Shown: positions 6,310 to 47,422 of the stretch, in pieces
Layout of the letters: each line of letters begins with the position of its first letter
How positions within the stretch are numbered: position 1 is the first letter of the stretch
Assembly (NCBI GenBank): GCA_026066175.1
Contig: GCA_026066175.1_4721.1
From: a phage
Length of the DNA: 64,000 bases
Reading direction: 5' to 3' (one strand)
The notes under the pieces: generated by a model
Told to the model about the DNA's origin: nothing
The model's database searches: none
The model's input: the letters and a program-made list of their open reading frames with translations, nothing else
Translations under genes and position numbers: made by a program

Positions 6310-6371
6310 GAGGCGAAAAAAAAACGAAAAAATAGGAAAACGGTGTTCATCCTTTTTAGGGGATGAACACC
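6310..6371 (-). terminator. Intrinsic terminator
   Basis: 11-bp stem GGTGTTCATCC / GGATGAACACC followed on the minus strand by a long U-rich tract. Confidence 0.65.
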
Positions 6372-9398: not shown

Positions 9399-9701
9399 TT
9401 AACCTCTACCGTCGAGCCACAGGTTATATTTCTCACGGGTAGTCGGATCACGATAGATACGACGATACCTTAATTCCGGTAATAACCCGGTTCGTACCAA
9501 CTCATCCGTTATCTTCCGACGTCGTTCTACGCCATCATGAATACGACGTAACTCACGGAAGTTAAGCGGTGTTTGTTTCATCAGAATTCCCATTACAACC
9601 GGGCGATGATCGATTTCGTACAGTGACAATACTCCACGTATTTCGTCTAACACGCGTTCTCGATCGATCAATATACGGTCGTGGTATTTTAACTGTTCCA
9701 T
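9399..9701 (-). CDS. Hypothetical protein
   Basis: ORF in array; start tentatively placed at MEQLKYHD. Confidence 0.3.
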   Translation of the reverse strand: MEQLKYHDRILIDRERVLDEIRGVLSLYEIDHRPVVMGILMKQTPLNFRELRRIHDGVERRRKITDELVRTGLLPELRYRRIYRDPTTREKYNLWLDGRG

Positions 9702-10066
9702 AACGACCACTCTTGTTCTACACGTCGACATACCGGTAATAAACACCACCAACATAAGGCGCTAAACGATAACAGCGCGAGAATAGCTGTGATTCCATTC
9801 AGGTGTCCGCTGATTTGCCATGAAGTAAACATGAATAGAACATAACCTAAACCATACCCGATGAACCGTTTGATGTTATATACCGATTGTACACAGATGT
9901 ACAGCAACGGGATTTGCCCAACAATAGAAATAACGGATCGTACCACAAAGTTAATACGCGCTGACGTATCAATGAAATCCATTGTAACCGCATTAATACC
10001 AATCAACGTAAGTGTGATACCGAGAAAGATTTTTATATACGTGCTGAATTTAGTTGCTTTTTGCAT
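9689..10066 (-). CDS. Multi-pass membrane protein
   Basis: Several hydrophobic segments (IFLGITLTLIGINAV, ILALLSFSALCWWCLL). Confidence 0.4.
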   Translation of the reverse strand: MQKATKFSTYIKIFLGITLTLIGINAVTMDFIDTSARINFVVRSVISIVGQIPLLYICVQSVYNIKRFIGYGLGYVLFMFTSWQISGHLNGITAILALLSFSALCWWCLLPVCRRVEQEWSLWNS

Positions 10067-10277
10067 TGTGCTTATTCCTACCTACATTCCTCAACAATGT
10101 AACGATAACGAATACCGCTATCATCAAGAAGATGAACCATAACCCAACGTTGATTCGGGCTGCAGGTTCATCGACGAGAAAGAACATCCATCCGCAGAAC
10201 CCGATGACAATCCATACCAACACCATCCCGGTTAATCCACGTAACAGCAGATGTCCCATAATCCCTCCTGATTTCAT
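10050..10277 (-). CDS. Small membrane protein (holin-like by size and topology only)
   Basis: 75 aa with two hydrophobic stretches (VLVWIVIGFCGWMFFLV, LWFIFLMIAVFVIVTLL) and a basic C-terminus. Confidence 0.4.
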   Translation of the reverse strand: MKSGGIMGHLLLRGLTGMVLVWIVIGFCGWMFFLVDEPAARINVGLWFIFLMIAVFVIVTLLRNVGRNKHNAKSN

Positions 10278-10444
10278 TTATCCTGATACAACGATAACTC
10301 CAGTCGTAGAAATACCGCTAACGCAATAGACAGTAACGCTACGCGTACCCACATCCCACCTTGAACGCTGTTATACAGCATAAAGACCAGAGCGATGCCG
10401 CCCATATGCAGGCGGCACTTATCGAAAAGTGTTGGTTTATACAT
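10274..10444 (-). CDS. Small membrane protein (ORF absent from the supplied track)
   Basis: Hand translation: MYKPTLFDKCRLHMGGIALVFMLYNSVQGGMWVRVALLSIALAVFLRLELSLYQDK; stop overlaps the start of 10050-10277 (ATGA). Confidence 0.3.
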   Translation of the reverse strand: MYKPTLFDKCRLHMGGIALVFMLYNSVQGGMWVRVALLSIALAVFLRLELSLYQDK

Positions 10445-23256: not shown

Positions 23257-23889
23257 TTACGATTTCACAACACATTCGACTTCGTCGTTCATGTACGCGT
23301 CGTATAAAGACAAGACTTCTTTCATTTTGATTTCAGGTAACGCAACGGAACGTATCGCTTTCAAGATGTTCCGCGTTTGATGATGTTTTGCTGTGGCCTC
23401 ACGTGCTTTACAGAACCGACGGATACAGGTATTAACTTTACCGCCTTCAGCACGTTCGAGAGCAACATGCAGCTTCAAATCAAGCAATACATCGGTAAGT
23501 TCCTGAGTAGCCGGATCGTTACGAATGAGTCGTACGGTATGTTCATCAGGATTCAGCATCGTGAGGAACTGAAGTTTTATGTGCTCTGGTACCGGTTTCG
23601 TGTTCGCCATGATGGCATCAAGCTGTTCTTTAACGTCCAACTCGTTGAACACATAACGTTCGACGTGTACAACATGTGCTTTTCCTGATTCACCGTAAAT
23701 CGCCATCGCACGATAATCATCAAACAACACGACGTACATCAGATCTTGTTCTGGTCCTAGGGTACCATCGATGAGTTTCGGGGCATGTTTCTTGAAGAAA
23801 CCGTAACGAACAGCTTCATCCGGCTGGAGCGTCCACGCATTAACAGGCTGTTTTACGAGTTCCATGTAACACCTCATCAAGATCATCAC
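23257..23889 (-). CDS. Hypothetical protein
   Basis: 210-aa ORF. Confidence 0.45.
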   Translation of the reverse strand: MMILMRCYMELVKQPVNAWTLQPDEAVRYGFFKKHAPKLIDGTLGPEQDLMYVVLFDDYRAMAIYGESGKAHVVHVERYVFNELDVKEQLDAIMANTKPVPEHIKLQFLTMLNPDEHTVRLIRNDPATQELTDVLLDLKLHVALERAEGGKVNTCIRRFCKAREATAKHHQTRNILKAIRSVALPEIKMKEVLSLYDAYMNDEVECVVKS

Positions 23890-24154
23890 TTACACCAGAC
23901 GGCACAACCACACCGGTACGAATCACTGCCGCGATTTCCTGCATCGCTTTGCCTTTCAACGCAAAGGTTTCGTATACAACAGCACGTCGGGTTGTTAGGC
24001 CCACAAACTTACAGACGACCATGTTGTCTTCTGAAAGATACGCGGTTTCCAACTCACCGTGCAGCAGTTCTTTTTCTCGAGTATCAATGCCGATTAAGGC
24101 AATTTGATAGGCAGATAGTTTCCAATAACGCATATTCATCCTACTTGTAAACAA
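23840..24154 (-). CDS. Hypothetical protein
   Basis: 104-aa ORF. Confidence 0.3.
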   Translation of the reverse strand: MFTSRMNMRYWKLSAYQIALIGIDTREKELLHGELETAYLSEDNMVVCKFVGLTTRRAVVYETFALKGKAMQEIAAVIRTGVVVPSGVSDDLDEVLHGTRKTAC

Positions 24155-24966
24155 TCAAATATTCCGAAACCGAGTTCCTCGTTTCTACTTTAGCCGAGAT
24201 CATTCTCCTTACCGTAATCGGATGAAATTCTGATGCGGTACTATAGATTTCTTCAACCAATGGGCACGTACTATTACTGATTACGGTAGGGATACCCGAC
24301 TTACGAAGTTTGTCGGCCGTTTCTGCAAGGTATCGGTGGTCATCCAACGTGAATCCTTCCTTGGTATAACCTGTAAAAGAGGCTGTGGTCGAAATAGGGA
24401 TATACGGCGGGTCGCAATATACGACATCGCCCGATCTCACGTTTTCGAGGTGTCGTCTAAACCCACCACTTACAATTTCCACCCCCCCCCCCCTCGACGG
24501 TGGTACGAAGATGGTTAGCAGCCGTCCGTAATTCGTATTTCGGACAATAGATCGTCTTGTATCGTCCGTGCGCAACGTTAAATAATCCGTTTTGGTTATA
24601 GCGACACAAACCATTGAATCCGTAACGGTTCAGGTATATGAAACACACCGCACGTTCCCAAGGATCGTTGCTTTGATTAAAACGATCGCGTACCTCGTAA
24701 TAACGTTTAACGTCTTCCGGTGAAATTTGGAATAAACGTTCAACATCCTCAATGAATTGTTTCGGACATGTCACCAACGCTCTCCAAACATTAAGGATAT
24801 CCTCGTTAGCATCCCCAATGGAATAACTAGGATATTTCAGTGAAAGCGTCACCGCGCCAGAGCCGACGAACGGTTCAACCAAGCGTTTTCCATCCGGCAA
24901 CACATTCCTAATTTCAGGGATAAGTTTGGTTTTGTTACCCAACCATTTAAGAAACGTTTTATTCAT
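24141..24966 (-). pseudogene. dam: Dam-family N6-adenine DNA methyltransferase, split by a frameshift in a 12-nt homopolymer
   Basis: N-terminal ORF (24457-24966) has FLKWLGNK...LVEPFVGSGAV; C-terminal ORF (24141-24614) has VVYCDPPY; the two frames meet in the run of 12 C on the plus strand (12 G in coding sense) at 24482-24493; one fewer G gives ...RTTVEGGGVEIVSGGF... in frame. Confidence 0.75.
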
Positions 24967-25387
24967 CGAGAGACCCCTGCGACCCGATGAACTCGATGCT
25001 TATTTCCGTTCGAATCGGGTTGATAAGAATTTCACGTACACGCTCCAACCATTCGGGATTATCCGTCAGAACAACATCGGCGTATTTCAACGGTGTATGT
25101 TCGAACGTATCGGTTGTGCTTACCATCAATACACCGTTAAGTTCTACGTACAGCGGTATACGTCCACGAATACGTTGCCATGTGTCATGGGTCAGATCTT
25201 CGCATTCAAGCGCAATCGCGATGATGGGGCTGATGTTAAGTGGGAAGCTAGGATGCAACGTGCGGCGAAATGTCACCCAGTTCTCAACATGAGAAACCGC
25301 AAGTTCTATCGAACAACATTTTGGTGGTATCTGAATATGAATTTGTTGGACAAGTTTATTGGGGTTTTGTACAGACTTATCGGCCAT
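24959..25387 (-). CDS. Hypothetical protein
   Basis: 142-aa ORF. Confidence 0.45.
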   Translation of the reverse strand: MADKSVQNPNKLVQQIHIQIPPKCCSIELAVSHVENWVTFRRTLHPSFPLNISPIIAIALECEDLTHDTWQRIRGRIPLYVELNGVLMVSTTDTFEHTPLKYADVVLTDNPEWLERVREILINPIRTEISIEFIGSQGSLDE

Positions 25388-45948: not shown

Positions 45949-47403
45949 ATGAAAATCAAACAAAGCTGGAAAGACGAATTACTTGCATTAGTTAACAGCA
46001 AAAACAGTTTACAACTGACATTAGACGACGTAAAGTTTGAATTAACCGAACCGGTAAGCGAAGTGCCCGGAACGGTCGTTGTTACAATCAAACCGAACGA
46101 TAATAGTCGCTACTTTAACGAGCAGTCTCTGACCTACGTCCGTCGAGACATTGCTAAAAACTTCACCGGGATTCCGTTACGGGTTATCGTTAAGCAAGAT
46201 ACCGCTGTAAGGGATATCATCAATACGATTGCTGAACGTTACGGATTGGTATTTGACACAACCGTCGACTTCCTCGAATCAGAGCTGAATAAACAAATTA
46301 CTTTCGCAGACACCGGTATTAAAGACGTTACTGTTCCGGTTGCAAACACGTCTTATGTTTGGGCTGGTAATCTTCAGTTCAATATTGCGAACGATACGTT
46401 AAGCTTGATTACTATCATCAAGAAAACCAATCTTACGAATCTGGTTTATCTGGATGGTGTTGAAGCTGACACATCGGGGTCGTTACTGTTAGCCACCACA
46501 GCACTTGTTAACGATAGCGTAAATAAGCCGATGGTTGAAAACGAAGATATCGTCGATGAATTCTACAACGTTCTTAATGCTCTAGCCAAATATGGTGACA
46601 TAACTGGCGATGAATTAAATGCCGCCTTACATGCGTACGATGAAGCAGAAAACAGGAATAAAACCACGGTAATAACTCTTGGTGATATCCAGTGTGTTGC
46701 AACAGAAAAAGACGATTGGGAAATTGGACGTTTACGCGGTCAGATGGTTCTCGCGCTCAAATCCGACAAACAACCTGAGCGCGAGAACACGTTAAGGTTG
46801 TTTACGAATGGCGGTGACGTCTCACTAACGTTAAACACAATGAAAGATATCAGTATCGATTGGGGTGATGGGAATAAAGTAACGTTGGATGCTGAAGAAA
46901 GATACGCGCACCACACATACGCCGACAATAACCAGTACCAAATCGAAATTGTGTCTCGTACGGACCCAGATGTGCTGCGACCAAATTATATTTCTGGGAG
47001 TGAGATAACCGAAGTAATTCACTGGGCTACTACTTCAACAATAGCTCTGAATTTTGTTGGATGCGATAATTTAGCGACTGTTCCAGATGAGATCCCAACT
47101 TCGTGGACAACGTTGGACAGCATGTTTGAAAGTTGTACGAATTTGAATGATCCGTCTATCTCTAACTGGAATACAAGTAACATCACATCAATGAATGGTA
47201 TGTTCGGCGGATGCACTAAATTTAACCAACCTTTAGCTGCCTGGGATGTCAGCTCAGTAACTGACATTGGTGGTATGTTTGTCGGATGTGACAGTTTTAA
47301 CCAAGATTTAAGTGGGTGGCGATTACCGTCAGGAGTAAACCACACCAATTACGATGATGGTGCTTTCTCGTGGCAGACGGAACATAAACCGACATTCCAG
47401 TAA
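45949..47403 (+). CDS. Fibre / receptor-binding-like protein with C-terminal DUF285-type repeats (paralog of 32-1786)
   Basis: N-terminal ~150 aa aligns closely with 32-1786; C-terminal ITSMNGMFGGCTKFNQPLAAWDVSSVTDIGGMFVGCDSFNQDLSGW repeats. Confidence 0.6.
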   Translation: MKIKQSWKDELLALVNSKNSLQLTLDDVKFELTEPVSEVPGTVVVTIKPNDNSRYFNEQSLTYVRRDIAKNFTGIPLRVIVKQDTAVRDIINTIAERYGLVFDTTVDFLESELNKQITFADTGIKDVTVPVANTSYVWAGNLQFNIANDTLSLITIIKKTNLTNLVYLDGVEADTSGSLLLATTALVNDSVNKPMVENEDIVDEFYNVLNALAKYGDITGDELNAALHAYDEAENRNKTTVITLGDIQCVATEKDDWEIGRLRGQMVLALKSDKQPERENTLRLFTNGGDVSLTLNTMKDISIDWGDGNKVTLDAEERYAHHTYADNNQYQIEIVSRTDPDVLRPNYISGSEITEVIHWATTSTIALNFVGCDNLATVPDEIPTSWTTLDSMFESCTNLNDPSISNWNTSNITSMNGMFGGCTKFNQPLAAWDVSSVTDIGGMFVGCDSFNQDLSGWRLPSGVNHTNYDDGAFSWQTEHKPTFQ

Positions 47404-47422
47404 AAAAAAATAGTTAGCATAA

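Follow-up and report, generated by a model that had tools for sequence, protein, structure and literature searches.

The window, by which we mean the whole stretch of 64,000 nucleotides analyzed here, carries on its minus strand a complete gene for a Dam-type (D12-class) N6-adenine DNA methyltransferase at 24141-24966, split by a run of 12 G residues (C12 on the plus strand) at 24482-24493. In coding sense the site reads CAT CTT CGT ACC ACC GTC GAG GGG GGG GGG GGT GGA AAT TGT AAG TGG TGG GTT TAG. The original prediction was of a Dam-family gene whose two frames meet inside this run, and this was confirmed by the open reading frames (ORFs), by the PF02086 profile and by comparison with E. coli Dam (PDB 2G1P). 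The first frame (24457-24966, minus strand) starts at an ATG at 24966 and yields an N-terminal product of 169 aa, with the C-terminus ...RTTVEGGGGGNCKWWV directly before a stop; this product (P0121) is identical to EKC0517688.1, recorded from an 'Escherichia coli O157' assembly. The second frame, also on the minus strand, contains no stop until the TAG at 24141. Within it lies an ORF of 113 aa (24141-24482; MEIVSGGF...) that contains the DPPY motif and is identical to P0124. The final G of the tract contributes to its start codon, a GTG; a GAGG lies 8 nt before this codon, and the ORF overlaps the 169-aa ORF by 26 nt. In NCBI, C-terminal ORFs of this kind (P0123-P0125) are annotated as a separate 'DNA adenine methylase'.

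As had also been predicted, removal of one G (G12 to G11) fuses the halves in frame, giving a single 274-aa protein in which they are joined as ...TTVEGGGVEIVSGGF..., and which has an intact 274-aa homologue at 97% identity (P0001). The PF02086 profile matched this restored protein in one stretch (profile positions 1-251 of 253, E = 6e-58, 196.9 bits against a cut-off of 22), and E. coli Dam matched it from end to end (residues 2-274, E = 4e-62, about 40% identity). In the allele of the window, the PF02086 match is encoded only across the two frames. The gene would be in frame with G11, G14 or G8; the window carries a +1, or OFF, allele.

The protein shares three features with E. coli Dam and the D12-class GATC methyltransferases of T4, P1 and phi80 (damL), i.e., the FxGxG motif, the NRYG(F/Y)NGLCRYN hairpin and DPPY. 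The AdoMet-binding motif I (FVGSGAV, within EPFVGSGAV) lies upstream of the tract at 24850-24870, and the catalytic motif IV (DPPY, within VVYCDPPY) lies downstream of it at 24402-24413 and is missing from the product of the OFF allele; both are nearly invariant in the alignment of homologues. The segment NRYGFNGLCRYN (24595-24630) aligns with the hairpin of E. coli Dam (LNRYGYNGLCRYN), which, from the literature on the structure of that enzyme with DNA, we take to be responsible for GATC recognition. The equivalents of R124 and L122 of the E. coli enzyme are retained in this hairpin. At the position equivalent to P134, presumably a residue of the hairpin that contacts a base, the clade of the window has Ala (NVAHGRY; codon 132 of dam, 24570-24572), and the relative P0005 reads NTPYGWY at this position, so that the specificity of the phage enzyme at the third base pair might depart from canonical GATC.

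A further difference from E. coli Dam, and from other bacterial Dams in the alignment, is an insertion of six residues, TVEGGG, of which the E-G-G-G is encoded by the G run. The glycines of this loop are dispensable, with R, E or K found there in alleles that are in frame. Lying between the half that contains FVGSGAV and NRYGFNGLCRYN (recognition and AdoMet binding) and the half that contains DPPY, this tolerant loop is a natural site for a frameshift switch. Also unlike E. coli Dam, the enzyme belongs to a lytic, nucleus-forming jumbo phage.

When 20 kb around the site were searched, the sole match was Escherichia phage vB_EcoM_Goslar, with about 80% nucleotide identity and a conserved gene order. 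From this similarity and from its source, we identify the window as a contig of a Goslar-like (Chimalliviridae) jumbo phage within the assembly of an E. coli O157 isolate. The gene upstream of dam (24959-25387, minus strand) is a homologue of Goslar gp125, and its stop overlaps the ATG of dam (ATGAATAA); the gene downstream (23840-24133, minus strand, 97 aa) is a homologue of gp124 and starts 8 nt past the end of dam. Goslar itself has no dam. A comparison of 24134-24966 of the window with 9687-10413 of Goslar (L001) showed that, at the position of the 826-bp gene, Goslar has an overlap of gp124 and gp125 and no remnant of dam; the gene was either lost from Goslar or never present there.

A megablast search with the dam region gave no matches in INPHARED phages, complete E. 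coli genomes or PLSDB plasmids, and exact-pattern and protein-guided scans of IMG/VR revealed no close relative, every hit being at most 42% identical. The relatives described below came from Salmonella, Shigella and E. coli isolate assemblies and from metagenomes. The presence of Goslar-like phages within bacterial isolate assemblies has been described recently, with 237 Goslarvirus genomes in one study (PMC12768965) and 60 Goslar-like genomes in a preprint (bioRxiv 10.1101/2024.12.31.630880), chimallin being well conserved in 59; neither of these two reports mentions a methyltransferase, a frameshift or a homopolymer. The setting of the window fits these 'bacterial assembly-associated' or 'persistent' virulent phages.

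The G12 run is beyond chance. The longest other run of G or C within the 64 kb is 6, and with the base composition of the window the expected number of G or C runs of 12 or more, if bases were independent, is about 0.002. Nor is the run a likely by-product of the amino acids encoded: this phage uses GGG for only 14.5% of its glycines, less than any other Gly codon, and GAG, the minor Glu codon, for 34% of its glutamates, so that codon usage gives E-G-G-G a probability of about 0.001 (about 1 in 1000) of being encoded by G alone. The only other long homopolymers in the window are two runs of A9 on the plus strand, at 6316-6324 and 47402-47410. These were considered as further switches and rejected, both being outside coding sequence: the first lies in the T-rich terminator tail behind a 12-bp hairpin on the minus strand (6372-6341), and the second begins inside the TAA stop of a plus-strand ORF (45949-47403).

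A protein search recovered full-length homologues (274-275 aa) at 97% and at 75-77% identity, and one truncated protein of 174 aa. All shared one gene neighbourhood, on Goslar-like contigs that reach 240 kb in length. In their DNA, the in-frame genes have at this site an 11-nt tract rich in G, which is G11 (L008, L104), G6AG4 (L009, L010), GGGAGGAGGGG (L005-7), G5AG5 (L105) or GAGA+G9 (L002). The 174-aa protein (L003 and L004, from two runs) has G6AG5, with one G in excess; here the frame was broken at the same site in a separate event.

In the clade of the window (at least 90% identity), seven alleles were read as DNA: G10 (L092-95), G11 (L101, L102), G12 (the window, L096-98), G13 (L106), G14 with a T>G substitution (L091), GAGA+G9 (L002) and GAGA+G11 (L099, L100). 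The 90%-identity protein clusters gave the corresponding products. Three alleles are in frame (ON), i.e., G11 (EGGGVEIV; P0126, P0130, P0132), GAGA+G9 (ERGGVEIV; P0001, P0128) and G14 (EGGGGEIV; P0131). Four are out of frame (OFF), each leading to a stop, i.e., G12 (EGGGGGNCKWWV; the window, P0129, P0133), G10 (EGGGWKL; P0127), G13 (EGGGGWKL; P0134) and GAGA+G11 (ERGGGWKL...; P0122, from three O157 isolates). The products of G10, G12 and G13 are fragments of 164-169 aa that lack DPPY. By contig counts there were about 13 ON versus 12 OFF in this clade and about 21 ON versus 33 OFF in the next, in samples that are not independent since Logan, NCBI and ENA overlap.

These alleles bear on the idea that the G12 allele might yield active Dam despite its frameshift, by +1 ribosomal frameshifting, by polymerase stuttering or by non-covalent assembly of the 169-aa and 113-aa products. 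Several features of the locus would suit such an arrangement: the 26-nt overlap of the ORFs, the start of the C-terminal ORF exactly at the end of the tract, the GAGG upstream of it as a candidate ribosome-binding site, and the position of the break in a tolerant surface-loop insertion. Split cytosine methyltransferases exist, but we know of no example of a split Dam. A programmed frameshift, however, needs a fixed relation between the frames, whereas the relatives are in frame, +1, -1 or +2. Programmed ribosomal frameshifting and transcriptional slippage were rejected because the out-of-frame arrangement is not conserved, the G11, G14 and interrupted 11-nt tracts all being in frame. Overall, we regard recoding or a split enzyme as very improbable.

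To compare changes in the tract with changes in its background, we aligned flanking sequences of closely related loci. L092 (SRR32320485) has G10, while L097 (SRR32320486) and L098 (SRR32320477) both have G12, and there were no mismatches among them in 2421 + 2000 flanking nt; these are sister runs of one strain, in which tract length is the sole difference. Similarly, L002 (A+G9) and L099 (A+G11) differ at 2 of 895 upstream bases, and L091 (G14) and L101 (G11) at 1 of 2421. No gaps were needed to compare the 14 loci, and over 4.4 kb they thus contain no indel other than the tract. An internal control was provided by lineages with the interrupted tract G5AG5 (EGEGV), in which all of at least 41 contigs are in frame at the tract; lineages with a pure tract are OFF about half of the time. 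We conclude that the length of the tract changes faster than all other mutations accumulate.

All of these tract alleles come from consensus assemblies, presumably mostly Illumina, a platform known to be prone to error in long runs of G. It was important to consider whether the true genome has G11 and an intact dam, with G12, and the G10 and G13 of relatives, being miscalls in poly-G. An error model also predicts that instability would scale with the purity of the tract, as observed. In addition, several 'partial' Dam proteins in NCBI from Salmonella and Shigella assemblies (P0139-P0142) have one terminus only a few codons away from the tract, where the contigs break; the site is hard to assemble, and such breaks, which count against the switch and in favour of an artefact, are consistent with either mixed tract lengths or poor poly-G reads. 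However, G12 was called on at least four distinct backgrounds (the window, L096, L097/L098 and P0133), and the 169-aa product of the window is present in both NCBI and Logan sources. Identical OFF alleles also recur across isolates and collections, in three E. coli O157 isolates (P0122, on a 248-kb contig) and in seven contigs (P0135). Moreover, the sister runs with G10 and G12 differ by 2 nt in consensus on identical flanks, and a frameshift is also found in the interrupted tract G6AG5, where miscalls are unlikely. An artefact is unlikely as a general explanation of the tract alleles, and we give the same low probability to the view that the window's gene is in truth intact. The possibility of an assembly error, which had been raised with the original prediction, does not account for G12 on at least three other backgrounds, although this one contig may still contain such an error.

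We also examined whether the gene is under selection. Comparison of the window's clade with the 77% clade gave a pS of 0.72-0.82, i.e., saturation at synonymous sites, and a dN of 0.12-0.20; dN/dS is therefore about 0.04-0.07, whether calculated for the N-terminal half or for the C-terminal half past the tract. Pairs within the 77% clade mostly had ratios of 0.07-0.15, the exception being one pair at 0.26. At the clade level, purifying selection is strong on both halves of the gene. The 113-aa C-terminal frame is open in every tract-OFF locus read as DNA. The gene has been kept functional over the long term, and the OFF alleles are therefore recent or reversible. The pure G11 tract persists in both of the synonymous-saturated clades, all four codons (GAG and three GGG) being retained, with a probability of about 0.02-0.07 computed from the gene's own rate of codon retention, and against the codon usage of the phage; this is no more than suggestive of selection for the tract itself. 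Many lineages have interrupted tracts.

These results weigh on irreversible decay, in which a dispensable dam contains a fragile run and the allele of the window is a pseudogene heading for loss, with no switching function. Goslar entirely lacks dam, with gp124 and gp125 abutting, and in the 77% clade two relatives with a stable interrupted tract carry inactivating lesions of other kinds, i.e., an in-frame deletion of 18 aa (P0164) and a frameshift just past DPPYIPI (P0167). Dam is therefore dispensable under some conditions, a point that also speaks against the switch. The hosts supply Dam themselves, and the DNA is protected by the phage nucleus. Within the clade of the window, the C-terminal half has 3-4 nonsynonymous and no synonymous differences, which we set aside as too few changes to interpret. 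Against decay stand the low dN/dS of both halves across saturated divergence and the open C-terminal frame in the OFF loci. ON and OFF also alternate on near-identical backgrounds, implying either frequent change in both directions or repeated recent origin, and the pure tract has been kept in both clades even though interruptions that would stabilize the ON state are readily available. Neither the relaxed constraint nor the extra downstream lesions of a decaying pseudogene were seen, the within-clade counts being small for the allele of the window. A dead gene, one of the outcomes initially envisaged, is disfavoured at the clade level, and we judge decay of the window's own allele to be rather unlikely.

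The locus shows several features of a contingency locus: a long homopolymer within an ORF sets the frame, its length is polymorphic and both halves of the gene are maintained, with a dN/dS of 0.04-0.13. The slipped-strand switch that was originally suggested finds support at the population-genomic level, where relatives range from G10 to G14, ON and OFF are both common, and sister runs differ as G10 versus G12. We consider it probable that this is a functional, hypermutable homopolymeric ON/OFF locus that controls the phage Dam and is OFF in the window. According to this model, dam is an accessory gene in a nucleus-forming jumbo phage of the Goslar type, and its frame would be set by a hypermutable G run, which slipped-strand mispairing during replication of the phage DNA would alter by one or two G residues. 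With G11, or the in-frame G14, full-length Dam would be made; G10, G12 and G13 would give fragments without DPPY. The OFF alleles would be young or reversible, since selection preserves the whole gene, and changes in the tract are expected to run in both directions. The outcome would be mixtures of Dam-ON and Dam-OFF phage, as at other contingency (phase-variable) loci, in which ON phage would methylate GATC and OFF phage would not. GATC is not avoided in the window (303 sites observed versus 245 expected).

Two points make the selective benefit of switching less obvious: the hosts are Dam+ in their own right, and replicating phage DNA is shielded by the nucleus. One payoff might be bet-hedging, with some host defences cutting GATC that is unmethylated and others attacking DNA that bears m6A; this would be a parallel to the A-run contingency locus of T2 agt. 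Speculatively, the phage nucleus may keep host mismatch repair out and so raise the rate of slippage, and OFF alleles may retain some activity via frameshifting or via association of the 169-aa and 113-aa products. A more far-reaching possibility, which we put forward tentatively, is that selection maintains the contingency locus so that each burst is a mixture of Dam-ON and Dam-OFF, hedging against defences or tuning the carrier state in E. coli O157, Salmonella and Shigella; the switching rate could then be exceptionally high, given that the nucleus probably shuts out the host's mismatch repair, and OFF alleles might supply a two-piece Dam.

Methyltransferases controlled by repeats are classic in bacteria. 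As in the phasevarions of Haemophilus and Neisseria (mod) and the poly-G methyltransferases of Helicobacter and Campylobacter, the number of repeats in a methyltransferase ORF would set the ON or OFF state. Unlike those systems, however, the phage gene is an orphan viral Dam rather than part of host restriction-modification or a Type III mod. Its target is more likely to be the modification state of the phage's own genome, with no effect on a regulon expected.

Among phages, polyG tracts have been reported in receptor-binding genes of Campylobacter phages and in a methylase of a Bordetella phage, and contingency loci with A runs are known in T2 and T4. The agt gene of T2 has an A9 contingency locus for bet-hedging between McrA/BC and TgvAB, involving reversible slippage in a DNA-modification enzyme, by which sub-populations escape defences against modified or unmodified DNA. 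The dam locus shares with agt a homopolymer inside a phage DNA-modification gene; it differs in that the enzyme is Dam, the phage belongs to the Chimalliviridae, the run is G11-12 rather than A9, and the evidence for it comes from population genomics. The damL gene of phi80 is also a phage Dam homologue and is annotated as disrupted by a frameshift, but it is a pseudogene annotation in a single temperate phage. The present locus adds to repeat-controlled methyltransferases and phage contingency loci that are already known, and what is notable is the phages in which it occurs, persistent nucleus-forming jumbo phages of enteric pathogens, and the unusually rich natural series of alleles.

If the switch is real, Goslar-like phages, found recently in hundreds of clinical isolates of E. 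coli, Salmonella and Shigella, would carry a built-in generator of epigenetic heterogeneity, and the newly proposed idea of phage contingency loci would extend to the Chimalliviridae and to adenine methylation. The natural ON/OFF pair would then offer a way to probe what a phage gains from Dam methylation when its DNA is enclosed in a protein nucleus, and stocks of such phages prepared for therapy or biocontrol would be mixed in their methylation state. For annotation, pairs of split ORFs labelled 'Dam' or 'DNA adenine methylase' in these assemblies should be read as one gene.

Two other features of the window were observed. The minus strand carries 72 of its 76 long ORFs. Some tetranucleotides depart markedly from expectation, with CTAG (34 observed versus 245 expected) and GGCC (72 versus 173) being scarce and ACGT (483 versus 245) abundant.
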